A stretch of DNA of 64,000 nucleotides from Flavobacteriaceae bacterium (GCA_019634365.1 JAHQVM010000020.1:19207-83206), one strand, 5' to 3'; positions 6,154 to 63,060 are shown, counted from the stretch's first letter. Translations and numbers: made by a program. Notes: a model not told the origin generated them from the sequence alone.

Positions 6154-6246
6154 AAACGAATATGAAAAAAGCGAATACGAATTTGCAAGACGCGTGTACC
6201 AATACAAAAATACCGTTTAAAAATTCAAGAATATCGACTACTATTG
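6150..6246 (+). promoter_or_regulatory. 21-bp-phased direct repeats (putative LytTR boxes) plus -7 box
   Basis: Units at 6150 CTAAAAACGAAT, 6171 GCGAATACGAAT, 6192 GCGTGTACCAAT and 6213 CCGTTTAAAAAT are exactly 21 bp apart. TACTATTG follows at 6239-6246. Confidence 0.6.
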
Positions 6247-6275
6247 CTCCAGTATTAATCTAAAAATTGCGAATT

Positions 6276-7094: not shown

Positions 7095-7107
7095 AAACAA
7101 TTATATC

Positions 7108-36522: not shown

Positions 36523-36523
36523 A

Positions 36524-38074: not shown

Positions 38075-38160
38075 AACCACCAATTTAGAGAAGGTTAAAT
38101 ATAGAAAGAAAAATTCTTAGGGAATACCCAACCACCTACCATTAAATGATATGTGCGAAC

Positions 38161-39268: not shown

Positions 39269-39282
39269 CGAAAACGTTTTCG
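39269..39282. promoter_or_regulatory. Putative LacI operator
   Basis: Perfect 14-bp palindrome CGAAAACGTTTTCG with the central CG typical of LacI/GalR operators; overlapping half-sites at 39252-39270. Confidence 0.7.
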
Positions 39283-42900: not shown

Positions 42901-43073
42901 GATTAAGCGTGTCGGGACAGAACCTATTCCTACTTACAGACTACAGTGGACTTGATCCTGAAGTAACTGTAAACACAGGAGACTTTGGAGATGGTATTCC
43001 ATCTGCAGGGATCGATTATGCATCTTTCCCACGACCACGCACATTTAGCTTTGGAGTTAATGCAACATTTTAA
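39942..43073 (+). CDS. susC: SusC/RagA TonB-dependent transporter
   Basis: CarboxypepD-like N-terminus; EVVVIGYG; NPNDIESINILKDASATAIYGSRGANGVVII; RADGSSRF; NPDLKWE; C-terminal F. Confidence 0.96.
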   Translation: MKNKLLTKLLLLPILLLMGSSAYAQLTVSGTVSDATGPVPGVNIIVKGTSNGAQSDFDGNYTLNDVANDAVLVFSYLGYATQEVSVGGQSTINVTLQEDIEALGEVVVIGYGTTTVKDATGAVSAVTSEDFNQGVISSPEQLIQGKTAGVQITQTTGEPGAGVAFRIRGSNSIRSNNNPLFVIDGVPLAGDGTAAAPGDIAFGAGQARNPLNFLNPNDIESINILKDASATAIYGSRGANGVVIIKTKSGRGNRGGLFEVSTNLSISKAREDYDLLDGPAYLDAITLFGGDANALNFRSNTNWQDVILRTSTSVNTNVSYSQSYATGNVRATFGYGKQFGVVENSDQERITGRINMQQRFLKDKLTIGLQGTVSRVNDQAPPLSATAGFNGDLIGAAYLANPTWPNRPGFDPGGGALNPANLLENYRSFTNTNRYLVNLSADYQFIPELSAKVSVGYDRSEGETLALFNGGVNGINRVQDNGQGAFNTLDAENQLLEFTVNYKKDFGNVNLDLIAGYSYQEFAREGFNSQGWGFGNDLLSEQEASLKDTFDAVVATLGGAQQGGFDQNGSFINTLLPEIDDTAELPFGTFRGVNSFWVDSFDNADELQSFFGRAVLNISDKYLFTATMRADGSSRFSPDNQYGYFPSASFAWKMAEEGFFGDGVSSFKLRVGAGIVGNQDGLGYANFVLRQRFAAPTIDNDGSINRPGTIFVSNDNPDLKWEQTLDLNLGLDFGFADDRFSGSLDVYRKETSDLLFFSQQAAPAVPPFFVFQNLEDGIVVNQGIELGLSYDFVDNDDLTIGASFNISYNDNIVEDTDRIADIGIVRGAGLTNAFAQRLAADQPLFSFYMAEFTGLDADGLPTYADVDGDGVGDPALDKKFVGKDALPDINSGLSLDVRYKNLDFNASFAGQFGFHVYNATANAFFTSGSITTSRNVITDVVTSGEAPGTSAEVSTRYLEEGDFIRLQSASIGYNFPLKDDSLFKSFRLSVSGQNLFLLTDYSGLDPEVTVNTGDFGDGIPSAGIDYASFPRPRTFSFGVNATF

Positions 43074-43084
43074 TAAAAATTACT

Positions 43085-44692
43085 ATGAGAAAACAAACAA
43101 TGTTTAAAAGAGAGCTCAAATTTGTACTTGCGCTGCTTGCTTTTGGAAGCTTCTTCGCCTGTACCGATTTGGAAATTGAAGAGACCGACTCGGAAATCAC
43201 AGAAGGATTTACTGGAGTTGAAGATACAGAGTCCTTCTTATCGGGTGCTTATAACAACCTGAATGGACGTATCGGTGACCAGGCTAACCTATTCGCTTTG
43301 AGTGAGGTTACTACAGACGCTGCCTTAATTCCAACACGTGGAACCGACTGGGGTGATAATGGAATCTGGAGACAATTGCACCAGCACAACTGGACGCCAA
43401 GTCACCAGTTTATCCTCAACGTTTGGAACCAATGGAATGATACCCAATTAGCGGGATCACAGTTATTGGACTCGCGAAGTAATGCTTCTACTGCAGAACA
43501 AGGACATGCAGCATTCCTAAGAGCACTGGGGATGTACATTATCTTGGATAACTTTGGACAAGTTCCTTTCCGTGATACTACGGCTCCTTCCTTAGAGGCG
43601 CCTTCAGTATTGTCTGGACAGGCAGCTGTAGATTTTATCCTCGCAGATTTGGCAACGGCCATTTCAAACCTTCCTTCCGAAGGACCTGGAACTGGTAACG
43701 ACCGAGCTTCAAAAGCAGCTGCAAGATACTTAAGAGCTAAAGTACTTCTTAACAAGCATATCTATATAGGAGGATCTCCTAACAGTGCAGATATGTCTGA
43801 AGTAGTTTCTTTGGTAGATCAAATTGCTGGTGAAGGATACGGATTGGTTTCTGGTTATTTCGACATCTTTAGAAATGACCTTGACAATGAAACTATCTGG
43901 TATATCCCAACTGCAGTGGGTAACCGTATCTGGAATGGACTTCACTACAACCAAGCTCCTGAAATTACAGGAGGTGGATGGAATGGATTCTCTACCTTGG
44001 CAGAATACTACGATCTTTTTGAAGGAGATCCTAACAACAATGAGTTAGGAAGCGGACAAGAAGAGCGTCGTGGATATGTTCCAACCGAAGGTGAAGCCTT
44101 TACTGGAGAAGCTGGAACTGAAGAGTCTGATGACTTCCCAGGATTTGTAAAAGGATCCAATATTGGTTTCGGATTCTTAGTAGGACAGCAGTATGAAATC
44201 AACGGAACTGCACTTACTGATAGAGCAGGTGCTCCTTTAGTATTTACGCGTGAGTTCCTTGACAACAACGGTCAGCCAAGTTTGATTAACAACAACGAAC
44301 GTACTGGAATTCGTATGATGAAGTACAACCCACGTTATGGTGGATTTACAGAGCACGAGATCTTCTTCAGATATTCTGATGCACACCTTATGAAAGCTGA
44401 AGCCATGATGAGAAATGGTGGAGACGCTACTGGAATGGTGAACGATCTTCGTGTATTACGTGGTGCTTCACCACTTGGCTCTGTTTCTGAAGCTGATCTA
44501 TTAGACGAAAGAGGACGTGAGCTATATGCAGAGTTCTGGAGACGTAACGATATGATTCGTTTCGGTCAGTACACTAGAGACTGGGAATTCAAAGATCCAG
44601 CAGCTGTGGGAGATGCAAACAGAAATCTTTTCCCAATTCCAGCAAGCCAGTTGATTCTTAACCCTAATTTGGTTCAGAATCCAGGATACTAG
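43085..44692 (+). CDS. susD: SusD/RagB surface lipoprotein
   Basis: Lipobox FFAC; FRYSDAHLMKAEA, ERGRELYAE.WRRNDMIRFG and NPNLVQNPGY motifs. Confidence 0.95.
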   Translation: MRKQTMFKRELKFVLALLAFGSFFACTDLEIEETDSEITEGFTGVEDTESFLSGAYNNLNGRIGDQANLFALSEVTTDAALIPTRGTDWGDNGIWRQLHQHNWTPSHQFILNVWNQWNDTQLAGSQLLDSRSNASTAEQGHAAFLRALGMYIILDNFGQVPFRDTTAPSLEAPSVLSGQAAVDFILADLATAISNLPSEGPGTGNDRASKAAARYLRAKVLLNKHIYIGGSPNSADMSEVVSLVDQIAGEGYGLVSGYFDIFRNDLDNETIWYIPTAVGNRIWNGLHYNQAPEITGGGWNGFSTLAEYYDLFEGDPNNNELGSGQEERRGYVPTEGEAFTGEAGTEESDDFPGFVKGSNIGFGFLVGQQYEINGTALTDRAGAPLVFTREFLDNNGQPSLINNNERTGIRMMKYNPRYGGFTEHEIFFRYSDAHLMKAEAMMRNGGDATGMVNDLRVLRGASPLGSVSEADLLDERGRELYAEFWRRNDMIRFGQYTRDWEFKDPAAVGDANRNLFPIPASQLILNPNLVQNPGY

Positions 44693-44716: not shown

Positions 44717-44749
44717 ATAAAAGAGGATTAGTTTCTAATCCTCTTTTAT
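44717..44749 (+). terminator. Stem-loop/terminator after susD
   Basis: Perfect 15-bp stem ATAAAAGAGGATTAG-TTT-CTAATCCTCTTTTAT. Confidence 0.75.
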
Positions 44750-44783: not shown

Positions 44784-47700
44784 TTGGCCAGAACTATTAT
44801 CCCCATAGTAGTACTATTATTCCTATCCATTTCTTGTACTGAGAAATCCGGGGAAAAGCGTTTTATATTACGCACGGATACTGGCATAAATTTTACTAAT
44901 ACCCTAACCAGCACAGCCCAACTCAACATCCTTAACTATTTATACTTCTACAACGGGGCGGGAACTGCCTTGGGTGATTTTAACGGGGACGGATTGCTAG
45001 ATATTTATTTCACCTCCAATCAAGAGGCAGATAAGCTCTATCTCAACAAAGGCAATTTTACTTTTCAGGATATCACACAAGAAGTCCATATTCACAATAC
45101 CGAAGGATGGACTTTTGGTGTAACCACCGTAGATATTAATCATGACGGATTATTAGATATATACATTTCCAAAGTGAGCGGCCATTTAAACCTTACCGGT
45201 GAAAACTTGTTATACGTTAATCAAGGGAATAAAAATGGCATCCCTTATTTTGAAGAGCAAGCCCAACAGTATGGATTGAATACTTCTGGCCTAGCCACAC
45301 AAACTGCATTTTTCGACTATGACCGGGATGGCGATTTGGATGCCTACCAAATGAACCACACCTTAAATCCGAATAACAATTTTGGAAGAGGCTCCCTTCG
45401 GTATCAAAGAGACAGCGTCATTGGAGATCGATTGCTGGAAAATAGAGATGGTATTTTTGTAGATGTATCTCAAGAAGCGCAAATTTTTCAGAACAAAATC
45501 AGTTTTGGACTGGGACTGGCCATTAGCGATCTTAATAAAGACGGGTATCCAGACATGTATGTGGGCAATGATTTTTTCGAAAATGACTACTATTATCTAA
45601 ATCAAAAGGACGGTACCTTTAAAGAATGGAATGCCACCGCATCTCTATTGGGACACACCACCCACTTCTCCATGGGTAATGATATTGCCGATTTGGACAA
45701 CAACGGCTGGCCCGATGTGGTTTCTGTAGACATGCTTCCAGAAGATTTGGAAACCCTGAAATCTGCAGGTACCGAATACAATTACCCCATCTATCAAAAT
45801 CAATTGCGTTTTGGCTACCAACCGCAATTCATGCAAAACACACTGCACCTGAATTTTGGAGGCAACAAATTTTCGGAATCCGCATTTCTATATGGTATGG
45901 CAGCTTCAGAATGGTCCTGGGCTCCACTCCTAGCCGATTTCGACAATGACGGCAAAAAGGATATGTATATCACCAATGGAATTCTGGGAGCTACCAACGA
46001 TATGGACTTCGTCAATTTTATTGCCAACGACAACATCCAAAAACGACTTGGGGCCGGTATGACGGATGAAGAACTGAAGTTCATTGAAATACTTCCTCAA
46101 AAAAAGACCGCCAACTACTTCTTCAGAAATGATGGAACCCAATTTCAAAATACTACAGAGGAATGGTCCGAAAAAATGCCCTCTTTTAGCCATGGTGCAG
46201 CCTATGGCGATCTGGATAACGATGGTGATTTAGATTTAATCGTGAACAACGTAAATGAACCTGCCTATATTCTTGAAAATACAACCCAAAAGAACGATGG
46301 CACTACTAATTATATCACCGTTAGATTTAAGGGTGTTGAAAAGAACCGTTACGGATTGGGTGCTAAAGTGAAAATCTTCACTCAAGGAGAAATGCAATAT
46401 TTCGAAAACCAGCCCACTCGTGGTTATCTATCAGCTGTCGCCCCTGAGGTTTTTGTAGGTTTGGGAGCGTACGACCAAATTGATTCCCTTCAGGTAATTT
46501 GGTCTAGCGGTGCTTTTGAGACGATAACCCATCCAGCCATCAACCAAATACTAACGGTTAATGAGAATGATGCATCCCTGGACAATTTTCAAATGTCACC
46601 CTTACCCAAGGGTTTCCTTACCAATGTTGATAGCCTCATTCCATTCAGAAACACGGACAATGTTTCCATAGAATTTAGTCGGGATCCCCTTATTCCTTTT
46701 GCCAGCACCAATGAAACAGGAGGAATTCTGGTGGGAGATCTAAACAATGATGGTCTTGAGGATTTGGTAACTTTGGGTGGGAAACATCAGTCTACAGAAA
46801 TATGGTATCAAAATCCAGATGGTATTTTGCAAAACACCCTCCTCCCAAGTGCTGAAGCAACCGACATCAACGAAGATACCTTTGGGGTGATTTTCGATGC
46901 CAATGGCGACAGTAAAAATGATCTTTTATTGGTAAGTGGTGGTAATGAATTTAAAACCGGCACTGCCATACAACCTCGTTTGTATCTTCAAAAAGACGCA
47001 ACGTTAGTTGCTGACACCCTTCAATTCAAAAACATCGAAATCCAGGCATCTAAAGCACGTGCAATCGATATAGACAATGATGGAGACTTGGATGTTTGCA
47101 TAACTTCCCATGTCAAAGGACACCAATTTGGTGCTACTCCAAAACAGTATATTTTCAGGAATGATGGTACTGGAATCTTTAATGACCAAACCGGAGTAAT
47201 TTCTGAAGACTTCCAACATATTGGTAATGTAAAAGACATACAATGGATCGATCTCGACGGCAATGGATTTAAAGATGCCATTGTATGCGGCTATTGGATG
47301 CCCATTTCCATTTTCATGAACGATGGAAAAACACTCGCCCAATCCACTACCCTGGACAACACCAAGGGTTGGTGGAATACCGTTAAGATGGCAGATTTTG
47401 ACCAAGATGGTGATGTGGATATCATAGCTGGCAATTGGGGTCTCAACTCACGCTTAACAGCATCGGTAGAAGAACCGATAACATTGTATCTGGAAGATTT
47501 CGACACCAATGGTAAAATTGACCCAATTCTAACCTATTTCTATCAGGGAAAAGAAACCACCTTGGCCACCAAGGATGAACTGGCCAAGCAACTGCCTTCC
47601 ATCAACAAAAAATACCTATCCTACCAAGAATTTGCTGCAGCTGATATAAACGATGTATTACCTTTGAAATCGACCCCTCAAGACCGAGTAAAAAAAGTAG

Positions 47701-48065
47701 TTCAATTAGGGTCAACTTATTTTGAAAACCAAGGTGATAATACTTATATTTCGCATCAACTTCCGCTAGAGGCCCAAGTTTCTACCGTGAATGATATAAT
47801 GATAGATGATATGAATGATGACGGGTATCTAGATGCGCTCTTGGTTGGAAATAATTTTGAAATCAGCACCCAAATTGGAAGATTAGATGCCTCTCATGGC
47901 GTGCTCTTGTTAAATGACAAAAAAGGATTTTTCTCCCCCGTGAATAATCAAGGTTTTTCTGCCAACGGAGCTTGTAGAAGCATCCAAAAAATAACCCTGG
48001 GTAACGAACAATTATATGTGGTTGGAAGAAATAACAACACACCCGTTTTTCTAAAAAAAGAATGA
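44784..48065 (+). CDS. FG-GAP/VCBS plus ASPIC-UnbV (CRTAC1-like) lipoprotein 1
   Basis: Lipobox SISC; many DxD/NxDGxxD blades; central UnbV-type segment (G.GAKV...TRGYLS...VGLG...IDSLQVIWS); second propeller; TTG start. Confidence 0.88.
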   Translation: MARTIIPIVVLLFLSISCTEKSGEKRFILRTDTGINFTNTLTSTAQLNILNYLYFYNGAGTALGDFNGDGLLDIYFTSNQEADKLYLNKGNFTFQDITQEVHIHNTEGWTFGVTTVDINHDGLLDIYISKVSGHLNLTGENLLYVNQGNKNGIPYFEEQAQQYGLNTSGLATQTAFFDYDRDGDLDAYQMNHTLNPNNNFGRGSLRYQRDSVIGDRLLENRDGIFVDVSQEAQIFQNKISFGLGLAISDLNKDGYPDMYVGNDFFENDYYYLNQKDGTFKEWNATASLLGHTTHFSMGNDIADLDNNGWPDVVSVDMLPEDLETLKSAGTEYNYPIYQNQLRFGYQPQFMQNTLHLNFGGNKFSESAFLYGMAASEWSWAPLLADFDNDGKKDMYITNGILGATNDMDFVNFIANDNIQKRLGAGMTDEELKFIEILPQKKTANYFFRNDGTQFQNTTEEWSEKMPSFSHGAAYGDLDNDGDLDLIVNNVNEPAYILENTTQKNDGTTNYITVRFKGVEKNRYGLGAKVKIFTQGEMQYFENQPTRGYLSAVAPEVFVGLGAYDQIDSLQVIWSSGAFETITHPAINQILTVNENDASLDNFQMSPLPKGFLTNVDSLIPFRNTDNVSIEFSRDPLIPFASTNETGGILVGDLNNDGLEDLVTLGGKHQSTEIWYQNPDGILQNTLLPSAEATDINEDTFGVIFDANGDSKNDLLLVSGGNEFKTGTAIQPRLYLQKDATLVADTLQFKNIEIQASKARAIDIDNDGDLDVCITSHVKGHQFGATPKQYIFRNDGTGIFNDQTGVISEDFQHIGNVKDIQWIDLDGNGFKDAIVCGYWMPISIFMNDGKTLAQSTTLDNTKGWWNTVKMADFDQDGDVDIIAGNWGLNSRLTASVEEPITLYLEDFDTNGKIDPILTYFYQGKETTLATKDELAKQLPSINKKYLSYQEFAAADINDVLPLKSTPQDRVKKVVQLGSTYFENQGDNTYISHQLPLEAQVSTVNDIMIDDMNDDGYLDALLVGNNFEISTQIGRLDASHGVLLLNDKKGFFSPVNNQGFSANGACRSIQKITLGNEQLYVVGRNNNTPVFLKKE

Positions 48066-48071
48066 TCATTT

Positions 48072-51000
48072 ATGTACTCTTATAAAATCCCCCATAAAAA
48101 GTTTTTCTTCATAGCAATCGCCATGCTTCTTTTAGCGGCCTGTGGCGAAACGGAAACTGGAACAGATGCGTCCACCGCGGATGGTGAACAGACACTTTTT
48201 TCCTTATTACCCGGCGAAGAAACCGGTGTCGATTTTCTGAATTATGTAGAAAACCAGAAAAACTTCAACATTTTCAAATACCGGAACTTTTATAATGGAG
48301 GCGGTGTTGCAGTTGGCGACATTAACAACGATGGGTTATCCGACATCTATTTTACAGCCAATATGGGGCCTAACAAATTGTACCTGAATAAAGGTGATTG
48401 GAAATTTGAAGATATTTCAGAGAGCGCCGGAGTGGTCGGAAACAAACCATGGTCTACCGGAGTGGTCATGGCCGATGTAAATGCCGATGGCCTCCTCGAC
48501 ATCTATGTGAGTAATGCCGGAAATATGGAAGGCAACAACCATGATAACGATCTTTACATTAACAACGGAGATTTAACTTTTACCGAAAAGGCCAAAGAAT
48601 TCAATTTAGCGGAAACCGGGTTCTCTACCCATGCTTCCTTTTTCGATTACGACAAAGATGGCGATCTGGACGCCTACATCCTCAACAACAGTAATATTCC
48701 CGTGAGTAGTTTGGGCTATGCCGAGCAACGGGATAAACGGGCACAAGATTGGGAAAACGTTCCCGATATTTTTAGGGGTGTTGGAGATCTGCTCATGCGA
48801 AATGATGGTGGCACCTTTACAGATGTTAGCGAAGAGGCAGGCATCTACGGAAGTCTCATCGGATTTGGACTAGGTGTGATGGTTACCGATATTAACCATG
48901 ACTTGTATCCAGATATCTATGTGTCTAACGATTTTTACGAAAGGGATTATCTCTATATCAACAATCAAGATGGCACCTTTACCGAAGATATCAAGAATTG
49001 GACCTCTCGTTTGTGCTTGTCTGCCATGGGTGTGGACATTTCAGATATCAATAATGACGGACTCCAGGATATTTTCATCACCGACATGTTGCCCGAGGAA
49101 GAAGAACGCGTAAAATCGGTCATGGAATTTGATGGTTACAACGTATTCAAACTGAAACAGAGCAAGGATTTTTACCAACAGTATATTCAGAATACATTGC
49201 AAATCAATAACGGGAATGGCTCCTTTTCTGAAGTTGCCTACCATAGTGGTGTTGAAGCAACCGACTGGAGTTGGGCAGGACTTATGTTCGATATGGATAA
49301 TGACGGATATCGGGATATATACGTAACCAACGGGATTAACCACGACCTAACCGATCTCGACTTTGTAGACTTCTTTGCGAACGAGATTATTCAGAATATG
49401 GCACTTACAGGTAAAAAACAGGCGATCGATTCCATTATCGATAAGATGCCTGTGAAACCCCTGCCCAATTATGCATTCCACAACAACAAGGACATCACCT
49501 TTACCGACTTGGCCTCTGATTGGGGATTGGGAACCCCAAGTATGTCCAATGGAGCGGCCTATGGAGATTTGGACAATGACGGCGATCTGGATTTGGTCGT
49601 GAACAATGTGAATATGGAAGCTTTCATTTATCGCAATAACTCCAACGAAACCCAAAACAACAACTACCTAAAGCTATCTTTTGAAGGCAGCGAATTGAAT
49701 CCCTTCGCTGTAGGAACCAAAGTTGTATTGCATTACGATAACGAAATCGTAACCCAGGAATTGGTTCCTTCCCGTGGATTCCAATCGTCTATGGAATACG
49801 ATATGACCCTTGGTTTGGGAAAAACTGCCTCTATCGATTCATTACGTGTCATCTGGCCCAATGACAAAACGCAAAAGATGGAAAACATTCAAGCCAATCA
49901 GACACTCACATTAAAGCAAAGTGATGCTGTCGAAGTGTTTGCCCCAGAAAAGACACGATACCAACCATTGTTAAAGGAAATAAGCTCGTCATTGGCAGCT
50001 CATAAAGAGAATGCCTACAATGATTTCGACTACGAAGGATTAATTGCACACAAGCTTTCAGAGGAAGGCCCTGCTTTGGCCATTGGCGATGTGAATGGCG
50101 ACGGTAATGATGATGTGTTTCTAGGAGGTGCCCAAGGACAAGCAGCCGCCCTCTACACGCACAACGGAAAAGGCAATCTAAGAGCCGCCTCACAATCGGT
50201 TTTCGATACCGATGCCTCCTTCGAGGACGTTGTGGCGGCATTTTTCGACGCTGATGGGGACAATGATTTGGACTTAATCGTTGGAACAGGAGGAAATCAG
50301 GTAGGTTCAGAAAACAAATACATTCCAAGACTATATATCAACGATAGTAGGGGGAATTTCACTCGATCGGATGCAACCCTTCCTTCTACATTTCAGAACA
50401 CCTCAACCATTGCCCCTCATGACTTTGATGGAGATGGGGATGTTGATTTATTTATAGGTTCGAGAAGTGTGGTTGGCATTTATGGAGCTGCTCCACGCCA
50501 CCTGTTTTTGGAGAACAATGGCGACGGAACCTTTACAGACGGAACCCAACGCTTGGCATATGCCTCCAAAGATTTAGGTATGGTGACTGCTGCGGAGTGG
50601 GTGGATATTGATGGTGACGGAAAAAAAGACCTGATTGCCACAACCGACTGGGATGGAATAAAAATCTTAAAGAATTCGGGAAGACGACTCAGTCCAAAAG
50701 CTACTACATTGGATAGCCTTACCGGTTGGTGGAAGACCGTAGCAGCTTCCGATTTGGATGGCGATGGCGATATGGATTTAATTTTGGGTAACGAAGGAAA
50801 CAACATCCATTATGTGCCCTCGGAGGAAAATCCTATGAAAATGTTTATCAATGATTTCGATAACAACGGAACCATAGAACAGATAACTACCCTCCAAAAA
50901 GACGGAAAGGATTATCCCATACATCAGAAAAAAGAACTCACTGCGCAAATGGTCTCTTTAAAAAAGCAGAACCTAAAAGCGCGGGAGTATTCCAAAAAGG

Positions 51001-51434
51001 CCATCGACGAATTATTTCCGAAAGAAGTCATTGATAGATCCATTGTCAAAGAAGTTCGCAATCCAGAATCGATAATCGCTATCAATGATGGAAACGGAAA
51101 CTTCAGTATTAAAAAATTACCCAAGCGCGTTCAATTGTCCTGTGTTTGTGGTATTGCTTGTGCCGATGTAAACAATGATGGACTTACCGATCTCATCATG
51201 GGAGGAAACAACTTCGAATTCAAACCCCAATATTCCCAGTTGGATGCCAGCTACGGAAATGTTCTGATTAACAAGGGAGATTTGGAATTTGAATGGCAGG
51301 ATTACAATGCAAGTGGTTTCTTCGTGAAAGGTGAAATGAAGTACTTGGCAGAATTTAAGGACAAAAATGGAACGAGTTACTTCATTACTGCGATAAACAA
51401 CGGAACCCCAAAAATCTTTACCCATAATGAATAG
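48072..51434 (+). CDS. FG-GAP/VCBS plus ASPIC-UnbV (CRTAC1-like) lipoprotein 2
   Basis: Lipobox LAAC; YNGGGVAVGD, TDWSW and RGFQSS...GLG...IDSLRVIWP motifs. Confidence 0.9.
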   Translation: MYSYKIPHKKFFFIAIAMLLLAACGETETGTDASTADGEQTLFSLLPGEETGVDFLNYVENQKNFNIFKYRNFYNGGGVAVGDINNDGLSDIYFTANMGPNKLYLNKGDWKFEDISESAGVVGNKPWSTGVVMADVNADGLLDIYVSNAGNMEGNNHDNDLYINNGDLTFTEKAKEFNLAETGFSTHASFFDYDKDGDLDAYILNNSNIPVSSLGYAEQRDKRAQDWENVPDIFRGVGDLLMRNDGGTFTDVSEEAGIYGSLIGFGLGVMVTDINHDLYPDIYVSNDFYERDYLYINNQDGTFTEDIKNWTSRLCLSAMGVDISDINNDGLQDIFITDMLPEEEERVKSVMEFDGYNVFKLKQSKDFYQQYIQNTLQINNGNGSFSEVAYHSGVEATDWSWAGLMFDMDNDGYRDIYVTNGINHDLTDLDFVDFFANEIIQNMALTGKKQAIDSIIDKMPVKPLPNYAFHNNKDITFTDLASDWGLGTPSMSNGAAYGDLDNDGDLDLVVNNVNMEAFIYRNNSNETQNNNYLKLSFEGSELNPFAVGTKVVLHYDNEIVTQELVPSRGFQSSMEYDMTLGLGKTASIDSLRVIWPNDKTQKMENIQANQTLTLKQSDAVEVFAPEKTRYQPLLKEISSSLAAHKENAYNDFDYEGLIAHKLSEEGPALAIGDVNGDGNDDVFLGGAQGQAAALYTHNGKGNLRAASQSVFDTDASFEDVVAAFFDADGDNDLDLIVGTGGNQVGSENKYIPRLYINDSRGNFTRSDATLPSTFQNTSTIAPHDFDGDGDVDLFIGSRSVVGIYGAAPRHLFLENNGDGTFTDGTQRLAYASKDLGMVTAAEWVDIDGDGKKDLIATTDWDGIKILKNSGRRLSPKATTLDSLTGWWKTVAASDLDGDGDMDLILGNEGNNIHYVPSEENPMKMFINDFDNNGTIEQITTLQKDGKDYPIHQKKELTAQMVSLKKQNLKAREYSKKAIDELFPKEVIDRSIVKEVRNPESIIAINDGNGNFSIKKLPKRVQLSCVCGIACADVNNDGLTDLIMGGNNFEFKPQYSQLDASYGNVLINKGDLEFEWQDYNASGFFVKGEMKYLAEFKDKNGTSYFITAINNGTPKIFTHNE

Positions 51435-54400
51435 AGGGCTCGTTCTTCTTTTGAGTTTTTTATTGCTTGCCAGCTGCAAAGAAAAGGGTATACTTTTCGA
51501 TTCTTTGGAAGCTGATGAAACAGGGCTTGCGTTCGAAAATACCATCACCGAAACCGACGATCTCAACATCATCGACTACCTCTACTTTTATAATGGGGGC
51601 GGGGTCGCCGTAGGCGACATCAACAACGACGACCTGCCAGATGTTTTCCTTTCCGGAAATCAAGTTTCGAACAAACTGTACCTGAATAAGGGAAATTTTC
51701 AGTTCAAAGACATCACCGATCAGGCCGGTGTTTCTGGAAGCAGCACTTGGAATACAGGGGCCGTCATGGGCGATGTTAATGGAGATGGCCTTTTAGATAT
51801 TTATGTTTGCGCCGTGGTAGGAATCTTGGGATTCGATGGTCACAACGAACTGTTCATCAATAATGGCGATGGCACTTTTACAGAGCGTTCTGCGGAATAT
51901 GGTTTGGATCATGATTCCTACAGCTCGAATGCCGCTTTTTTGGACTACGATCTCGATGGGGATTTGGACATCTATTTACTAAATCATGCCGTACATACAC
52001 AGGAATCCTTTGGCAAGGCCGAATTGCGTTTTAAAAGAAACTACGAAACCGGGGATAAGCTTCTGCGAAATGACGGCGACCACTTTACCGATGTAAGCGA
52101 AGAGGCTGGAATTTTTGGAGGGGTAAACAGTTACGGTTTGGGATTGGCCGTATCAGATTTTAACCAGGATGGATGGCCCGATCTTTATGTGGGGAACGAT
52201 TTTCACGAAGATGATTATTACTACCTCAATAACCAAGACGGAACTTTTTCTGAACAAATGCGCGATTATTTTGGGCACACCTCCCGATTTTCCATGGGGA
52301 ACGATGTAGCCGATATTAATCACGACGGATGGCCCGACCTTATTTCATTGGACATGCTTCCAGAAGATGAAAAAGTATTAAAGGCTTCTGAAGGGGACGA
52401 TAATTTCCAGATTCTTAAGCTTAGAACCGAACAATACGGGTACCACTTTCAATATACCCGCAATATGCTTTTTCTGAATCAGCCGGGTTATGATTATGCC
52501 GAAACGGCTCCCTTGAGTGGAGTTGCAGCTACCGATTGGAGTTGGAGTGCCCTTTTTGCCGATTTTGATCAGGATACGGAACAGGACCTTTTTATCTCTA
52601 ACGGAATAGCCAAGCGTCCCAATGATTTGGATTATATCAAATTCGTATCCAATGAACAGATTCAGAAGAAAATGGAATCGACCCGGCTCATGGACAAGGA
52701 AGCCTTGGAATTGATGCCTTCCGGAAAAGTTCCGAATTATATCTTTAAGGGAATGGGCGATATCACCTTTTCGGACGAATCGGAACGATGGATGAAACAG
52801 GACTCATTGATTTCCGGTGCTTCTGCCCTAGCCGATTTTGATGGCGATGGGGATATGGATATTATCACCCAAAATTTAAACAGTACTCCGATTATCTATA
52901 AAAACAAGACCAACGAAAAGGCTAACTACCTGCAACTGGCATTTACATACACCGACAAAAACAGATTCGGAATCGGAACCAAAGTATTTTTGTATCACAA
53001 TGGGAAACAGCAATACAAAGAACTGTACACCGTTCGGGGATTTCAGGCTTCGTCTGAACCCGTCCTTCATTTTGGATTGGGAACGGCACCTAAAGTAGAT
53101 TCCTTGAAGATTATCTGGCCCAATGGAACTTATCAGACGCTTTCCAATGTTGATGCCAATCAGAAACTCATCGTTGAGATGCAAAAAACCCAACCCTTTG
53201 ATTACGCATCTTTGCTTCCTCCAAACAACAACCTGTTCGAAAAAGTAGAGAACAATTTATACCTCGACTTTGTACACAAAGAAGATTCTTACATCGATTT
53301 TCACCGTGAAAAGTTGATGCCATACCTAGTCTCGGATCGAGGCCCCGCCACAGTCATGGGAGATTTTAATGGTGATGGTAAAAAAGACATTTTCTTTGGA
53401 GGATCCAAATTCGAGCAGGCCCAATTGTACTTGCAATCCGATACATCATTTGTAGCGAGTCCCGTTGCCAGCTTCGAGAACAACAAAATCACAGAGGATG
53501 TGGTGGCTGCTATGGGCGATTTCAATAATGACGCTAAAGATGATATTTTCGTAGGAACAGGAGGAGGCGACTTTTCCAATCAAGCTCCTGCCTTGTTGGA
53601 CCTGTTGTATACACAAACCGATTCCACACTCACAAAAACAGTATTGCCTGAAATATTCGAAAATACGTCCGTAATCGCTCCCTACGATTATGACAGTGAT
53701 GGCGATTTAGATGTATTTGTAGGCAACCAATCTGTCACAGGTAATTTCGGCGCCGTTCCGGAATCTTACTTCCTGAAAAATGAAGCAGGCACATTTCAAA
53801 TCGACCCTGTAAACCCCGCCACAACATTAGGAATGGTCACCGATGCAATTTGGGTAGACCTAAATGGGGATCAGAGCAAGGATCTGGTGGTGATTGGAGA
53901 ATGGATGGCTCCTATTTTTTTTCTGAATGAAAACGGAACCTTGACCCAAAAGAAAATGACTTTTGGAGATCTCCATGGATTGTGGCAAGCCATTACGGCA
54001 TTCGATATGGATGGCGACGGCGATAACGATTTACTCCTTGGAAATTGGGGTGACAACTCGAAATTTAGTGCATCCGATAAGGCACCCATGCGAATGTATG
54101 TGAATGACTTCGATAAAAATGGCCAGACCGAGCCCATTGTATGTACCCAGAAAAATGGGGCGTACTATCCCTTGGAAGATTTTGACGAATTGGCCTCGCA
54201 GATGGTCTTTCTAAAGAAGAAATTTCCCGATCATAAATCCTTTGCAGGGAAATCCATTGAAAAAATATTTGAAAAGGCGGTGTTGGAAGAAAGCCAATTA
54301 CTGGAAGTGCACAACCTTCGATCTGGCTATTTAAGAAATGATGGTGAAAGTTTCGAATTTGTCCCTTTCAACAACACCTTGCAAGTGGCACCTATTCTCT

Positions 54401-54678
54401 CTTTTTGTACTTTTGATTTTGACAACGACGGACAGGAAGAAGTAGTAGCAGCTGGTAATTATTTTGGAGTTAAGCCTTATCACGGAAGATTGGATTCATT
54501 TTCGGGAACGCTAATCAAAAACGAATCGAATATGATTCCAGGGCATTTACTAGGACTGGACCTAGGACAAAAATCGGTTCGTCACATGAATGTCTTTGAA
54601 CACCAAGGTGCAACCTACCTACTGGTGACCTTTAACAATGAAAAAGTACAAGTATACCTAATCAAAAAACCACAATAA
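51427..54678 (+). CDS. FG-GAP/VCBS plus ASPIC-UnbV (CRTAC1-like) lipoprotein 3
   Basis: Lipobox LASC; YNGGGVAVGD, TDWSW and RGFQAS...HFGLG...VDSLKIIWPNG motifs; 8-bp overlap with the previous gene. Confidence 0.9.
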   Translation: MNRGLVLLLSFLLLASCKEKGILFDSLEADETGLAFENTITETDDLNIIDYLYFYNGGGVAVGDINNDDLPDVFLSGNQVSNKLYLNKGNFQFKDITDQAGVSGSSTWNTGAVMGDVNGDGLLDIYVCAVVGILGFDGHNELFINNGDGTFTERSAEYGLDHDSYSSNAAFLDYDLDGDLDIYLLNHAVHTQESFGKAELRFKRNYETGDKLLRNDGDHFTDVSEEAGIFGGVNSYGLGLAVSDFNQDGWPDLYVGNDFHEDDYYYLNNQDGTFSEQMRDYFGHTSRFSMGNDVADINHDGWPDLISLDMLPEDEKVLKASEGDDNFQILKLRTEQYGYHFQYTRNMLFLNQPGYDYAETAPLSGVAATDWSWSALFADFDQDTEQDLFISNGIAKRPNDLDYIKFVSNEQIQKKMESTRLMDKEALELMPSGKVPNYIFKGMGDITFSDESERWMKQDSLISGASALADFDGDGDMDIITQNLNSTPIIYKNKTNEKANYLQLAFTYTDKNRFGIGTKVFLYHNGKQQYKELYTVRGFQASSEPVLHFGLGTAPKVDSLKIIWPNGTYQTLSNVDANQKLIVEMQKTQPFDYASLLPPNNNLFEKVENNLYLDFVHKEDSYIDFHREKLMPYLVSDRGPATVMGDFNGDGKKDIFFGGSKFEQAQLYLQSDTSFVASPVASFENNKITEDVVAAMGDFNNDAKDDIFVGTGGGDFSNQAPALLDLLYTQTDSTLTKTVLPEIFENTSVIAPYDYDSDGDLDVFVGNQSVTGNFGAVPESYFLKNEAGTFQIDPVNPATTLGMVTDAIWVDLNGDQSKDLVVIGEWMAPIFFLNENGTLTQKKMTFGDLHGLWQAITAFDMDGDGDNDLLLGNWGDNSKFSASDKAPMRMYVNDFDKNGQTEPIVCTQKNGAYYPLEDFDELASQMVFLKKKFPDHKSFAGKSIEKIFEKAVLEESQLLEVHNLRSGYLRNDGESFEFVPFNNTLQVAPILSFCTFDFDNDGQEEVVAAGNYFGVKPYHGRLDSFSGTLIKNESNMIPGHLLGLDLGQKSVRHMNVFEHQGATYLLVTFNNEKVQVYLIKKPQ

Positions 54679-54679
54679 C

Positions 54680-56020
54680 ATGCGAAAGATGATGATGCGT
54701 TTCGGAAGTTTTACAGCACTGTGTTTGGCAGTACTTTCCTCTTGTAGTGAACCTCCCCAACCAATTTCGATAAGTCCAGACGATTTTCATAATTCGGTAG
54801 ATCAAGTTACCGAAGTGATGATACACGATATTTTTTCGCCTCCGGTGGCGAGTAGAATTTATGCCTATCCCAACGTAGCGGCTTACGAAATCCTCGCGAG
54901 CCAATCGGAAGAATTCAATTCCTTGGCCGGACAAGTAAGAGATTTTAAAGGCATTCCAACAACATCGGATCTTCAGGTGAATCATGAGTTGGCCGCACTT
55001 ATCGCTCATATGGATGTAAGCAAACGCCTTATCTTTTCAGAAGATAGGATCGAATCCTATCAGGACAGTCTGTATGGTGTTTGGAGCAAAGCCAATGAAG
55101 CCGAGTTCGAAGCTTCCAAAAAATATGGATTGGAAGTCGCCGAACATATCGCTGCTTGGTTGGATGGGGATAATTATAAACAGACCCGTACCATGCCGAA
55201 ATTTACGGTACAGACCGATGATCCATCCCGTTGGCAACCCACACCACCTGCCTATATGGATGGTATCGAACCCCATTGGAACAAGATCCGCCCTTTCCTT
55301 TTAGATTCGGCATCCCAATTTAAACCCTTGCCACCTCCACCCTACTCCATGGATAAAGGCAGCGACTTTTATAAAGAACTGGAAGAGGTATATGCTGTGA
55401 GCCAGGAAATCACCAAAAATGGAGATGATAGCGAAGAGATTCAAATAGCACAATTTTGGGATTGTAATCCCTATGTATCGGTAACCCGTGGCCACTTAAT
55501 GTTCGCTACTAAAAAGATCACCCCAGGAGCCCACTGGATCGGTATTTCCAAAATAGCTTCGCGCAAGGCGGACTACGATGTTATGAATACCGTATACACC
55601 TATACCCATACCTCCATGGCCATAGCTGATGCTTTTATTAGTTGCTGGGACGAAAAATACCGTAGCAATTTAGTACGCCCAGAAACATTGATCAACGAAC
55701 ATATGGATGATAGCTGGCAACCCATTCTACAAACTCCACCATTTCCCGAATATGTAAGCGGTCATTCTGTGGTATCCGGGGCAGCCTCAGAAGTATTAAC
55801 AGGAATCTTTGGCGACAATTTCTCCTTTAACGATAATACTGAGGTGCCCTACGGACTTCCCATTCGGAATTTCAAATCCTTTAGACTTGCCGCAGAAGAA
55901 GCTGCTGTAAGCCGTTTGTATGGCGGTATCCATTACCGTGCTGCCATCGACAATGGCTTGGATCAGGGAAAGGCTTTGGGACAACATTTTCTGAACACCC
56001 TAGAAATGCGAAATAACTAA
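54680..56020 (+). CDS. Vanadium-dependent haloperoxidase (iodoperoxidase-type) lipoprotein
   Basis: Lipobox LSSC; three PAP2/VHPO motifs CWDEK(x6)RP, PPFPEYVSGH and SRLYGGIH; also FWDCNPY. Confidence 0.88.
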   Translation: MRKMMMRFGSFTALCLAVLSSCSEPPQPISISPDDFHNSVDQVTEVMIHDIFSPPVASRIYAYPNVAAYEILASQSEEFNSLAGQVRDFKGIPTTSDLQVNHELAALIAHMDVSKRLIFSEDRIESYQDSLYGVWSKANEAEFEASKKYGLEVAEHIAAWLDGDNYKQTRTMPKFTVQTDDPSRWQPTPPAYMDGIEPHWNKIRPFLLDSASQFKPLPPPPYSMDKGSDFYKELEEVYAVSQEITKNGDDSEEIQIAQFWDCNPYVSVTRGHLMFATKKITPGAHWIGISKIASRKADYDVMNTVYTYTHTSMAIADAFISCWDEKYRSNLVRPETLINEHMDDSWQPILQTPPFPEYVSGHSVVSGAASEVLTGIFGDNFSFNDNTEVPYGLPIRNFKSFRLAAEEAAVSRLYGGIHYRAAIDNGLDQGKALGQHFLNTLEMRNN

Positions 56021-56037
56021 ATCCTGGCGCAGCAATT

Positions 56038-56931
56038 ATGAAGAAAAAGATATTGCTTGCTTTACTCAGTACTGCCGTATTGGTAGTTGGCTGGTACTTA
56101 TTTGTTCGAACCTACGATTATCAGGTGAACTTCACTGCAGAAACCTCTGTGGGAACCGTGAACCAATCCATCAAATCATGGAATTCTTCATTTGATGATC
56201 CGCAACCTATTGTTCAGAATAGATTAGGAGAATTGATCCAGACGATTAAAAATGGTGATACGGTGCGCACCTATGTTTGGAATGTTGAAAACGTGGGGGA
56301 CTCACAGGTAAAAGTAAGTGCTGGTATCATTGATGAAGAAAACAGCCTGAAACATCGCTTGGCCATACCGTTTTCCGATACCGCCTTTGAGCAGGAATCC
56401 AAAGCCAAAGTGCAGGAGTTTTTTCAATTATTGAACAATCACCTCAAAAAAATCAAAGTTACCGTAGAAGGGGAAAGTGAAACCCAAGCCAGTTTTTGTG
56501 CCTACATCCCTATGAAAGGGCTTCAAATAGAAAAAGCTATGGGCATGATGAATACCTACAATGTCTTGACTAACTTCATGATTACCGGGAATATTGAACC
56601 CCGCGGAACTCCGTTTGTTGAAGTCACCCATTGGAATCAGGAAAACGATAGCATTTCCTATAACTTTTGTTTTCCCATTTTTAAGAATGAACAATTGCCT
56701 AATCATCCCGAGATTAAGTATAAAAAGTTCTTCCCTAAAAAGGCATTGAAAGCCGTATACAACGGCAATTACATTACTTCAGATCGCGCTTGGTACGCCT
56801 TACAGGAGTATGCAAATGCCAATAATATCGAGGTAGAACTAACGCCCTTGGAAATATTTTATAACAATCCGAATATGGGCGGGGACGAATTGAATTGGAA
56901 AGCTGAAATCTTCATGCCAATCAAAGAATAA
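56038..56931 (+). CDS. Membrane-anchored GyrI-like small-molecule-binding protein
   Basis: N-terminal TM; C-terminal GyrI-type pattern (KAVYNGNY, AWYAL, LEIFYNNP, WKAEIFMPI). Confidence 0.75.
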   Translation: MKKKILLALLSTAVLVVGWYLFVRTYDYQVNFTAETSVGTVNQSIKSWNSSFDDPQPIVQNRLGELIQTIKNGDTVRTYVWNVENVGDSQVKVSAGIIDEENSLKHRLAIPFSDTAFEQESKAKVQEFFQLLNNHLKKIKVTVEGESETQASFCAYIPMKGLQIEKAMGMMNTYNVLTNFMITGNIEPRGTPFVEVTHWNQENDSISYNFCFPIFKNEQLPNHPEIKYKKFFPKKALKAVYNGNYITSDRAWYALQEYANANNIEVELTPLEIFYNNPNMGGDELNWKAEIFMPIKE

Positions 56932-57001: not shown

Positions 57002-59137
57002 ATGACTGCGAAACGTTTAGCCACCCTATTGTTGGCAGCAATGGGGATACTGTTCTTTTCATGCCAATCCGAAACTATAAAAACCCAAGTTACCTCACCC
57101 GATGGCACCCTTACGGCCAGCATAGGGCTTTCCGATACAGGACAACCCTATTATTGGGTAGCTCATAAAGGGACCACTATTATCGATACGTCCTATATGA
57201 GTTTGGAGGTAAAGGATCTTTCTGCTTTTAAAAATGGATTTACCATTACCGCTTCAGAAACATCTACCATGAACGAAGATTGGGAAATGCCTTGGGGAGA
57301 GCAGCGAACGGTAAACAATCACTACAACGAGCTCAAGGTATCCTTGGAAGAAAACACCGTAACACCTAAAAAAATGAACCTCATTTTCAGGGTATATGAT
57401 GATGGATTGGGCTTTCGATATGAATTCCCCGAGCAAGAAGGCATGACAGAAATGCTGATCACAGACGAGAACACTGAATTCAATTTAACAGCTGATCACA
57501 AGGTATGGTGGCAGCCTGGCGATTGGGACATATACGAACACCTGTACAACGAAACATCTTTTTCTAATATAGACGCACTATCCAAGGCCAATCACCCCAA
57601 CCTCATTGCCACCTATATTCCTGAAAATGCAGTCAACACGCCGGTGACCATGAAAACCAATGACGGATTGTATCTCAGTTTTCATGAAGCGGACCTTACC
57701 AATTACGCAGGGATGACCTTGAAAGTGGATCCGGCAAGTCTCAAAATGACCAGTGAATTGGTTGGATCTGAAATATTGGGCGGAAAAGCCAAAGTCTCCT
57801 TACCCTTCGAAACACCGTGGCGTACCATTCAAATTGGTGAAAAGGCCGGGGATCTTATCGAATCGAATCTACTGGTCAACCTAAATGAACCCAACACCAT
57901 TGGGGATGTGAGTTATTTTACACCCATGAAATACATTGGGATTTGGTGGGAAATGCACATTGGCAAATCTACCTGGGATATGGAAGGTAGTCAGGACATG
58001 AACACTTACATTGAAGGTTCCAAAAACTCTGCAAGGCATGGAGCAACTACCGAAAATGCCAAAAAATACATCGATTTTGCCGCCGCCAATGGTATTAAAG
58101 GACTCTTGGTTGAAGGTTGGAATACCGGATGGGATCAATGGATCAATACCGAAGATCGTGAAGGTGTTTTCGATTTTATGACCCCGTACCCAGATTATGA
58201 TTTTGATGAAGTCATGGCTTATGCCAAGGAGAAAGGCGTGGAGGTCATCATGCACCACGAAACATCGGGAGCTCCTCGAACCTACGAAAAACAAATGGAG
58301 GTTGCCTATAATTTTATGAAGGAAAACGGCATGAATTCTGTAAAAACGGGATATGTTGGAAAGATCATCCCTAAAGGCGAATACCACCATGGACAATGGA
58401 TGGTAAATCATTATGAAAAGGTGCTCAAAGATGCCGCTGCCAAGAAGATTGCTATCAATGCGCATGAACCTATTAAAGCCACTGGAAAGCGTCGCACCTA
58501 TCCCAATGCGATAGCGCGGGAAGGACTCCGCGGACAGGAATTCAACGCTTGGGCCACCGATGGCGGAAACCCACCCAATCATCTCCCTACCATAGCTTTT
58601 ACACGTATGTTGGGAGGCCCGATCGACTTTACACCCGGTGTTTTCAACATTAAATTCAACGAATACAAAGAAGAAAACCAGATCAATACAACCTTGGCCC
58701 ATCAATTGGCCTTGTATGTGGTTATATATAGCCCACTGCAAATGGCCTGCGATTTACCAGAACACTATACTTTGGATGGACAAACCCATCCCGCATTTCA
58801 ATTTATAGCCGATGTGGGCGTAGATTGGGAGCAATCGATGGTATTGGATGGTGAAATAGGTGATTTTGTGGTCATGGCACGCGAAGAAAAAGCATCCGGA
58901 AACTGGTTTGTTGGAGGAATCACTAACGAAGAGGCGAGAACACAATCCTTGGATTTCAGTTTCTTGCCCCAAGGAAAAACATTCAAAGCGACCCTGTACA
59001 AAGATGCTCCCGATGCCCACTGGGACAACAATCCAGAGGCTTATGAAATTAGCACTATGGAAGTAGATTCCACAACCAACATGACTATCGAAATGGCTGC
59101 TGGTGGCGGATTTGCAATGAGTATAATGGCACCATAA
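57002..59137 (+). CDS. GH97 alpha-glucosidase, SusB-like inverting subgroup, lipoprotein
   Basis: GFRYEF, EGWN, MHHET, KTGYVG (Gly, not the Asp of retaining enzymes), AHE, RGQE and GPIDFTPG motifs. Confidence 0.92.
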   Translation: MTAKRLATLLLAAMGILFFSCQSETIKTQVTSPDGTLTASIGLSDTGQPYYWVAHKGTTIIDTSYMSLEVKDLSAFKNGFTITASETSTMNEDWEMPWGEQRTVNNHYNELKVSLEENTVTPKKMNLIFRVYDDGLGFRYEFPEQEGMTEMLITDENTEFNLTADHKVWWQPGDWDIYEHLYNETSFSNIDALSKANHPNLIATYIPENAVNTPVTMKTNDGLYLSFHEADLTNYAGMTLKVDPASLKMTSELVGSEILGGKAKVSLPFETPWRTIQIGEKAGDLIESNLLVNLNEPNTIGDVSYFTPMKYIGIWWEMHIGKSTWDMEGSQDMNTYIEGSKNSARHGATTENAKKYIDFAAANGIKGLLVEGWNTGWDQWINTEDREGVFDFMTPYPDYDFDEVMAYAKEKGVEVIMHHETSGAPRTYEKQMEVAYNFMKENGMNSVKTGYVGKIIPKGEYHHGQWMVNHYEKVLKDAAAKKIAINAHEPIKATGKRRTYPNAIAREGLRGQEFNAWATDGGNPPNHLPTIAFTRMLGGPIDFTPGVFNIKFNEYKEENQINTTLAHQLALYVVIYSPLQMACDLPEHYTLDGQTHPAFQFIADVGVDWEQSMVLDGEIGDFVVMAREEKASGNWFVGGITNEEARTQSLDFSFLPQGKTFKATLYKDAPDAHWDNNPEAYEISTMEVDSTTNMTIEMAAGGGFAMSIMAP

Positions 59138-59138
59138 T

Positions 59139-60347: not shown

Positions 60348-60361
60348 CGATAACGATTTCG
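60348..60361. promoter_or_regulatory. Second putative LacI operator
   Basis: CGATAACGATTTCG, 12/14 identical to the 39269 palindrome with the same AAAAT 5' flank; upstream of the MFS-MFS-trehalase genes. Confidence 0.55.
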
Positions 60362-61823: not shown

Positions 61824-61826
61824 GGC

Positions 61827-63044: not shown

Positions 63045-63060
63045 ACCCTTGAGCCACTAA

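Follow-up and report, generated by a model that had tools for sequence, protein, structure and literature searches.

The 64,000-nucleotide stretch of a Flavobacteriaceae bacterium considered here (GCA_019634365.1, JAHQVM010000020.1:19207-83206; hereafter the window) carries, behind a susC–susD pair, a cassette of five genes encoding three paralogous double-propeller lipoproteins (U1, U2 and U3), a haloperoxidase-type lipoprotein of 446 amino acids (aa) and an anchored GyrI-like protein of 297 aa. This cassette is real, conserved and partly catalogued and, judged by genome comparison, its conserved unit is a propeller protein together with the haloperoxidase. The pair is read tentatively, at somewhat less than an even chance, as a putative periplasmic, calcium-binding propeller–iodoperoxidase peroxide sink that is tied to oxidative sugar catabolism and captures iodine as a by-product. 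Such a unit possibly underlies the glucose- and calcium-dependent iodine uptake of flavobacteria. What is new here is one predicted LacI-type operator common to this locus, to glycolysis genes and to a glucoside 3-dehydrogenase/3-ketoglycoside cluster, together with the recurrent proximity of that dehydrogenase gene to the module.

The five genes, their lengths, the gaps between them (6, -8, 1 and 17 nt) and their protein types had been proposed in a first-pass annotation and are confirmed. Its suspicion that the gene order might already have been noted also proved right, as the order appears in the supplement of PMC6298971; because gene order and enzyme are both in print, the surprise is limited.

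Conservation of the propeller–haloperoxidase unit

Conservation was assessed in 401 Bacteroidota genomes, 400 spread over the phylum and the window's own. Enzyme matches at E ≤ 0.001 occur in 105 genomes and at E ≤ 1e-80 in 68; the latter value, which defines the enzyme clade, was placed after a gap in the list had been seen, and kin among the genomes are not independent. A U2 match at 1e-80 is present in 68/68 enzyme-clade genomes; 38 genomes carry U2 only, 295 carry neither, and U2 occurs in none of the 10 genomes with intermediate enzyme matches. Propeller and enzyme are also fused in about 20 database proteins, which include double- and single-propeller forms and are spread over at least three positions of the enzyme tree. 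In P0005–P0008 and P0011 the signal peptide of the enzyme is missing. Co-occurrence and fusions together support the functional link between propellers and haloperoxidase that the first-pass annotation had drawn. Two apparent fusions were discarded: G343 consists of separate open reading frames (ORFs), and P0009, which retains the enzyme signal peptide, is probably an artefact. The model of the single-propeller fusion P0021 was not used (15-row alignment, enzyme half unresolved, pLDDT 63.9).

Loci were drawn from 100 of the 149 listed non-self enzyme matches, omitting seven near contig starts and rows weaker than 2e-49; a further 59 matches lie beyond the 149 enumerated. Of the 88 strong phylum-wide loci scored, whose stretches extend only 2.5 kb downstream, 54 have an adjacent propeller, 65 have one within 10 kb, 50 contain SusC and 10 contain GyrI. 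One locus overlooked by the ORF filter (L101) has the order SusC–SusD–propeller–enzyme when read by hand. Of the closest named loci, the best 80 of 582 confirmed, 68 have a propeller adjoining the enzyme, 74 have one within 10 kb and 68 have GyrI; in 6 of the 80 no propeller accompanies the enzyme. Tight spacing is likewise conserved, with gaps of at most 30 nt at the U1–U2 (42/42), U2–U3 (83/83), U3–haloperoxidase (75/80) and haloperoxidase–GyrI (70/72) junctions of relatives, which supports a coupled operon as first proposed.

The surroundings of the unit are more variable. Propellers number one to three per locus, and close enzyme orthologues adjoin differing propeller clades. A U1 orthologue is found in 36/68 close loci with a full upstream flank; in those with a full downstream flank, trehalase is found in 7/65 and GH97 in 5/65. 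Distant enzyme copies neighbour GH65, GH29, GH125, GH5/30/35, GH9 and PNGase genes. Co-occurrence and locus counts thus point to a nested arrangement, in which propellers are general accessories of polysaccharide utilization loci (PULs), the enzyme relies on their presence and GyrI is an addition of narrower distribution.

Two groups of loci have distinct neighbours. In Maribacter-like loci (L023, L031, L041, L050, L055, L075, L076) xylose isomerase, an FGGY kinase and a sodium symporter lie within or ahead of the cassette. In family f38 (L169–L176) propeller and enzyme sit in a housekeeping context, followed by a small lipoprotein-like gene with no library match.

The propeller proteins

U1, U2 and U3 are 36–41% identical in pairwise comparison, and each begins with a lipoprotein-type signal peptide and contains FG-GAP repeats and one UnbV_ASPIC domain (Pfam). 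The AlphaFold2 model of U3 is confident (pLDDT 92.2, pTM 0.92, 108-row alignment). Residues 21-587 form a propeller plus an Ig-like UnbV domain and match CRTAC1 (9etn; Z 39.7, root-mean-square deviation 2.4, 458 residues). The second propeller matches LGI1 with Z 29.7 and aldos-2-ulose dehydratase with Z 28.1 (11% identity); because it fits both about equally, the fold does not choose between a scaffold and an enzyme. Foldseek with the whole model returns CRTAC1 first and then generic multi-propeller matches. The homologue alignment places invariant polar and Trp residues in the first propeller, and the propeller columns that are invariant or nearly so include no His. A predicted complex of U3 residues 20-592 with the enzyme scored 0.02 against a mark of 0.32 (controls not folded) and is evidence in neither direction.

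These proteins might themselves be the functional core in many PULs, either binding sugars or serving as unrecognised enzymes for glycosides or keto-sugars, with haloperoxidase and GyrI as passengers in a separate protective role. The enzyme clade is lacking in 38 of the 106 propeller genomes, and of 20 propeller-centred loci 17 contain SusC or SusD, frequently accompanied by 3-keto-disaccharide hydrolases and Gfo dehydrogenases. ASPIC genes also follow SusD in xylan, galactan and beta-glucoside PULs in the supplement of PMC6298971, and both the invariant polar and Trp residues and the likeness to the dehydratase would suit a catalytic or binding role. That likeness is, however, no better than the one to non-enzymatic LGI1, no near-invariant His accompanies it, and the proposal leaves both the presence of a propeller in all 68 enzyme-clade genomes and the fusions unexplained. 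We consider it unlikely.

Further propeller genes occur outside the cassette. A fourth double-propeller gene (G000:C13:11138-14506) has neither haloperoxidase nor SusC alongside. In L196, L197, L198, L201, L222 and L225 a single-propeller UnbV gene of about 600 aa lies beside a gene of 280-290 aa with a weak RnfD/NqrB match, and these pairs adjoin double propellers and SusC or GMC genes. The pairing resembles the UnbV–UnbU pair of enediyne clusters. A second clade of loci (L090, L097, L106, L115, L118–L120, L040, L083) has a conserved lipoprotein of about 190 aa between propeller genes, for which Pfam and NCBIfam gave no match.

The haloperoxidase

The 446-aa protein matches the vanadium haloperoxidase of PDB entry 4CIT over residues 15-444 (706.9 bits, E 1.6e-211). 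The vanadate-site residues K326, R333, S360-G361-H362, R412 and H418 are all kept; K326, R333, H362, R412 and H418 are invariant in 127/127 aligned relatives, S360 is found in 115 and G361 in 120. A review table lists 4CIT as Zg-VIPO1 of Zobellia galactanivorans, monomeric and specific for iodide only (PMC8407142). Both its sequence and its synteny place the enzyme in the Zg-VIPO1 clade, and vanadium loading would be expected of it.

The same residues allow for another activity. Apo-haloperoxidases show phosphatase activity, and the enzyme could act in the cell as a periplasmic PAP2 phosphatase for sugar phosphates, with iodide oxidation a side activity after vanadate addition in vitro. The Pfam match is to PAP2, motifs C1 (K-x6-RP) and C2 (SGH) are intact, and the sugar-uptake neighbourhood includes kinases and phosphorylases. 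In bacterial acid phosphatases the last residue of motif C3 is D; in G6PC1 it is Q (PMC12264158). Here that position, four residues past H418, is A422, and in the 127 relatives it is A, S or G in 120 and D in 4. With the closest solved relative deposited as a vanadium haloperoxidase as well, a phosphatase role is rather improbable.

Other haloperoxidase-like genes were encountered. The genome holds a distant second match of 26% (G000:C30:11828-12571), and P0001 (945 aa, four members) joins the enzyme clade to a trehalase-like domain, whether as a real fusion or as an artefact. In another enzyme subclade (L129, L130, L136, L138, L141–L144, L148, L152, L153, L157) the gene is flanked by a membrane protein of about 184 aa; the same loci encode predicted outer-membrane barrels without a library match and sometimes a second, distant haloperoxidase.

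The GyrI-like protein

The 297-aa protein consists of a hydrophobic N-terminal stretch and a C-terminal GyrI-like domain. Its list of homologues gave no functional hint, and a weak match to iodotyrosine deiodinase (E 0.7) was rejected as chance level. Most relatives have a 283-aa gene behind GyrI; its counterpart in this genome is on another contig and is left out of the parts list.

In a selective iodination machine, the propeller would channel I+ made by the enzyme to a specific small molecule bound by the GyrI-like protein, in parallel to enediyne UnbV, which is presumably one of the proteins of the enediyne diiodotetrayne system. The propeller–enzyme fusions would fit such channelling, as would the RnfD-like genes that flank single-propeller UnbV genes in L196, L197 and L201, the existence of a paper on the enediyne diiodotetrayne, by its title, and the Zobellia active site, which is described as poorly accessible (PMC11871015). 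The window locus, however, contains no biosynthetic gene and none recurs in related loci, and GyrI is present in only 10 of the 88 strong loci. Selective iodination is therefore very unlikely.

Coupling to SusCD and likely location

Between susD and the cassette lies a perfect terminator-like hairpin (Table 1), and a stem of at least 9 bp follows susD in 23/32 related junctions, a count with no shuffle control. Because of this hairpin it is proposed that the cassette is expressed below, and partly apart from, susCD. A sigma-70 promoter scan gave fewer sites than chance (34 vs 44.4), and the Bacteroidetes -7 motif is absent from the + strand of four intergenic gaps.

Expression data exist for Zobellia, where LacI-SusC-SusD are ZGAL_1251-1253, the ASPIC proteins ZGAL_1259-1261, the haloperoxidase ZGAL_1262 and the membrane protein ZGAL_1263; a second propeller/enzyme set is ZGAL_2086-2088 (array and gene tables of PMC5613140). 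The Zobellia SusCD is treated as orthologous to that of the window because G354 has the same order as Zobellia and its SusC and SusD are 56% and 49% identical to those of the window. In the 21 arrays of that study, whose substrates exclude trehalose and sucrose, cassette expression is seen on each of the seven carbon sources and changes by about 3-fold or less, and ZGAL_1260 and ZGAL_1261 are highest on glucose. ZGAL_1260-1263 co-vary (neighbour Spearman 0.70, 0.81 and 0.80), ZGAL_1259 follows with only 0.23-0.48, and the cassette varies against the nearby SusCD (Spearman -0.22 to -0.78). In the fresh-algae tables of PMC9296495, ZGAL_1259 alone of the cassette rose, on Ascophyllum (log2 1.65 vs maltose, P 0.010), and it was flat on Laminaria. 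ZGAL_1260-1263 are missing from the genes listed as raised on fresh Laminaria, Fucus or Ascophyllum; the haloperoxidase that is raised on algae is a different one, vIPO3 (ZGAL_2250 in the table).

Surface lipoproteins of Bacteroidetes require an acidic signal after the lipidated Cys, as described in PMC5080379. The mean charge of this signal, from a crude lipobox finder with some visibly wrong assignments, is -2.75 for SusD, +0.73 for U1, -0.02 for U3 and -0.11 for the enzyme. A net charge of -1 or below is found in 28/32 SusD, 5/33 U1, 31/57 U2, 25/66 U3 and 27/73 enzyme orthologues. The cassette thus probably faces mostly the periplasm.

Taken together, the cassette behaves as a semi-independent operon and not as a fixed part of the transporter. 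Least credible of all is the original proposal of a stoichiometric surface complex on SusCD, performing halogen or peroxide chemistry against an algal oxidative or iodine burst: tight coupling within the cassette, SusC in 50 of the 88 strong loci and the rise of ZGAL_1259 on Ascophyllum are in its favour, but the hairpin, the patchy U1 and trehalase, the varied number and clades of propellers, the mostly non-acidic export signals, the anti-correlation with SusCD and the absence of ZGAL_1260-1263, enzyme gene included, from the genes raised on algae all count against it. Of the outcomes that the first-pass annotation had named as counting against its proposal, independent assortment from trehalase and, in the Zobellia orthologues, an apparent lack of co-induction with susCD were found. 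Its suggestion of co-regulation with disaccharide uptake finds support in the disaccharide/glucose context and the common operator-like site and none in the Zobellia orthologues, which vary against SusCD.

A predicted common operator and the glucoside 3-dehydrogenase-like cluster

The 14-bp palindrome between lacI and susC occurs genome-wide at 4 exact and 9 one-mismatch sites, compared with 0.014 and 0.6 expected from base composition. Operator-like sites lie before lacI/susC, a divergent cluster on contig C59, pfkA-gapA-pgi and betaPGM-GH65-GH13, and others lie before genes read by eye as glgE, pyruvate kinase, pckA, pdhA and gdhA; four precede genes without an obvious sugar link. The palindrome ahead of central carbon genes was seen on contigs C5, C25, C68, C98, C106 and C114 of G000. 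Among relatives, the site before SusC is found in L051, L090, L093–L096, L226 and L227, and a second operator-like site is conserved before the first MFS gene in L009, L022, L063, L094 and L095. In the 88.55%-complete genome, tblastn with the window LacI as query finds no second lacI, and the distribution of sites suggests that one LacI serves as its global glucose regulator.

The C59 cluster (G000:C59:6559-15879, L208) has a perfect operator-like site at 11876. It encodes a GMC flavoprotein (PF00732/PF05199), a small TAT-type protein like gluconate-2-dehydrogenase subunit 3 (PF13618), three TIM barrels, a Gfo dehydrogenase, a 3-keto-disaccharide hydrolase (DUF1080) and an azurin-like lipoprotein. 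The nearest solved relatives of the GMC protein are fructose and glucose dehydrogenases. No cytochrome c is present among the nine ORFs scanned (at least 120 aa); the azurin-like gene is there instead.

A GMC match is found in 53/68 enzyme genomes and 79/106 propeller genomes. Among the matches listed, with propeller rows limited to a typed subset, 15/69 genomes with both have GMC no more than 25 kb from a propeller or enzyme gene, against about 2.2 expected under uniform placement, itself an underestimate. Of 14 GMC-module stretches inspected, five (L212, L215, L218, L222, L225) show a direct link and five a link within one sugar cluster; three, from one genus, have about 12 intervening genes, and one stretch continued another.

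A tentative mechanism and its significance

In the peroxide-sink reading, SusCD would import trehalose-, sucrose- or maltose-type glucosides under LacI control, and a LacAB-like flavoprotein would oxidise glucosides in the periplasm and leak H2O2. The enzyme, loaded with vanadate and either bound to a propeller protein or positioned next to one, would consume H2O2 and iodide, with iodine accumulating as a by-product. The propellers would be general PUL accessories that bind Ca2+ and probably a sugar or partner protein, with the enzyme as an add-on, and the GyrI-like protein would bind a small hydrophobic or iodinated product.

Several observations weigh against this proposal. Release of H2O2 is only assumed, since LacABC-type enzymes are described as cytochrome-c dependent in PMC8121099. 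No GMC match is found in 15/68 enzyme genomes, including all of family f38, where the propeller–enzyme pair also has no SusC within the stretch examined, and a propeller is lacking in 26/105 GMC genomes. The chance figure for GMC linkage is too low because sugar genes tend to lie together in any case and related genomes are not independent samples. Across 40 loci, the pairwise identities of enzyme, propeller and SusC show weak correlations (0.25-0.33), and U2 may be surface-exposed, given the acidic N-terminus of about half of its orthologues. The module is also found in a protein assigned to Puia sp., a soil genus in whose habitat iodide and vanadate should be scarce. In the Zobellia arrays, expression changes are mostly non-significant, and ZGAL_1262 is as high on kappa-carrageenan as on glucose (PMC5613140 tables).

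A bolder form of the same proposal would make double-propeller UnbV lipoproteins an unrecognised periplasmic PUL class that docks redox partners. Together with the iodoperoxidase and the glucoside 3-dehydrogenase, they would make up a circuit in which sugar fuels the oxidation of iodide. Such a circuit would supply the missing genetic basis for the iodine accumulation of marine Flavobacteriaceae that depends on glucose and calcium, and would give bacterial CRTAC1-like proteins a first function. This form of the proposal is improbable.

The question is testable, as the module is found in 68/401 sampled genomes, including cultured strains with published transcriptomes. It bears on the in-cell role of the only structurally known bacterial iodoperoxidase, on the function of bacterial CRTAC1/UnbV proteins and on the genes behind glucose-, oxygen- and calcium-dependent iodine uptake by flavobacteria. 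If the peroxide-sink reading is true, abundant marine bacteria oxidise iodide as a result of their everyday feeding on sugars; if false, a large PUL gene family is still in need of a function.

Layout of the locus

By gene content the locus is a PUL, with tandem susC–susD, GH97, GH100-like, trehalase and GH32 genes and a LacI with its putative operator (Table 1). The first-pass description of a non-CAZyme cassette is correct for the five genes, in which the Pfam scan found no CAZyme domain, and not for the locus, where GH97 starts 70 nt 3' of the cassette. NCBIfam assigned no name to any of the five proteins, and the start codon of U1 is TTG. The closest named relative is Aureisphaera galaxeae, with 89% enzyme identity and an identical order. 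Reads of one DNA run, possibly the source sample, cover all 30 bins and are not independent support.

Table 1. Features of the sugar locus, in window coordinates.
Feature	Position	Strand	Basis
GH32 fructosidase, sugar-porter MFS and PfkB kinase (sucrose/fructose arm), downstream of lacI	34290..38083	-	Pfam, NCBIfam
LacI-family regulator, divergent from susC	38161..39180	-	Pfam, NCBIfam, tblastn
Putative LacI-type operator, perfect 14-bp palindrome between lacI and susC	39269..39282	.	Sequence; binding inferred
SusC TonB-dependent transporter	39942..43073	+	TIGR04056, 689 bits (cut-off 368)
SusD lipoprotein, N-terminus acidic, surface-export-type	43085..44692	+	Pfam, signal-charge scan
Terminator-like 15-bp perfect hairpin with T-rich tails, between susD and cassette	44717..44749	.	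Function inferred
U1, double-propeller ASPIC/UnbV lipoprotein, 1093 aa, dispensable paralogue	44784..48065	+	Pfam, relatives' loci
U2, double-propeller ASPIC/UnbV lipoprotein, 1120 aa	48072..51434	+	Pfam, homologue comparison
U3, double-propeller ASPIC/UnbV lipoprotein, 1083 aa; CRTAC1-like N-half and second propeller	51427..54678	+	Pfam, structure model
Vanadium haloperoxidase-type PAP2 lipoprotein, orthologue of Zg-VIPO1 (PDB 4CIT)	54680..56020	+	Sequence match, synteny
GyrI-like putative small-molecule-binding protein, N-terminally anchored; add-on mainly in close relatives	56038..56931	+	Pfam
GH97 lipoprotein and GH100-like six-hairpin glycosidase	57002..60323	+	Pfam
Second operator-like site, 2 mismatches, before MFS-trehalase operon	60348..60361	.	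Sequence
Two MFS transporters and trehalase, continuing past window end	60513..63999	+	Pfam, NCBIfam

Beyond the window, contig C7 continues with a PfkB-like kinase and a sodium/solute symporter-like gene. Upstream, a 673-aa secreted six-hairpin glycosidase-like protein (32283-34304; weak GH78 match below cut-off), convergent with pfkB, may be part of the same sugar locus. Positions 3555-7965 hold genes for a sensor kinase, a LytTR-type regulator and, after them, two paralogous lipoproteins of 275 and 285 aa that, read by eye, belong to no recognised family. Inside U1, a dense patch of differing letters in run X1 (47159-47225) suggests strain variation or an assembly difference.

Comparison with known systems

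CRTAC1/ASPIC-UnbV (9ETN) shares the FG-GAP propeller followed by an Ig-like UnbV domain; U1–U3 differ in adding a second propeller, helical inserts and a lipid anchor, and in forming paralogue arrays in PULs. The enediyne UnbV cassette presumably includes UnbL/UnbU partners and a polyketide synthase, neither of which is among the window ORFs scanned.

Zg-VIPO1 (4CIT/4USZ) has the same vanadate-site residues, is a lipoprotein and stands in the same order of three ASPIC genes, enzyme and membrane protein, but in Zobellia five genes lie between susD and the cassette. It was reportedly characterised alone and in vitro, by Fournier in 2014. A literature search, with most subscription journals outside its scope, found no paper assigning a role to the neighbours of Zg-VIPO1 and nothing on ASPIC/UnbV with polysaccharide utilization or SusD.

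In the supplement of Kappelmann et al. (PMC6298971), the order lacI-SusC-SusD-ASPIC x3-PAP2...MFS-GH37 is drawn as trehalose PULs 103/116. The window locus matches this order; it lacks the GH13 and the small hypothetical gene between the ASPIC genes, which occurs in L090- and L106-type loci, and adds GyrI, GH97, GH100-like and GH32 genes. Gramella PUL 156 of the same source places two FG-GAP proteins, a haloperoxidase and an effector-domain protein beside a glucoside 3-dehydrogenase. Substrates there are predicted from CAZymes, and UnbV and peroxidase are unmentioned in the main text as far as it is accessible.

LacABC-type clusters catabolise disaccharides in the periplasm via 3-keto intermediates (PMC8121099). 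The window genome has comparable genes behind an operator-like site, namely GMC, the subunit-3-like protein, Gfo dehydrogenase, TIM barrels and DUF1080; the propeller and haloperoxidase are not named in the accessible part of that paper.

The closest physiological parallel is Arenibacter sp. C-21, in which iodine uptake depends on glucose, oxygen and calcium and can be bypassed by an H2O2 source (PMC5064120). Its genome contains five VIPO homologues, and a membrane glucose oxidase and a haloperoxidase were proposed, with the genes left unassigned in that paper. The proposed glucose oxidase resembles the GMC flavoprotein, the haloperoxidase resembles the enzyme of the cassette, and the calcium requirement recalls the FG-GAP repeats of its propellers.

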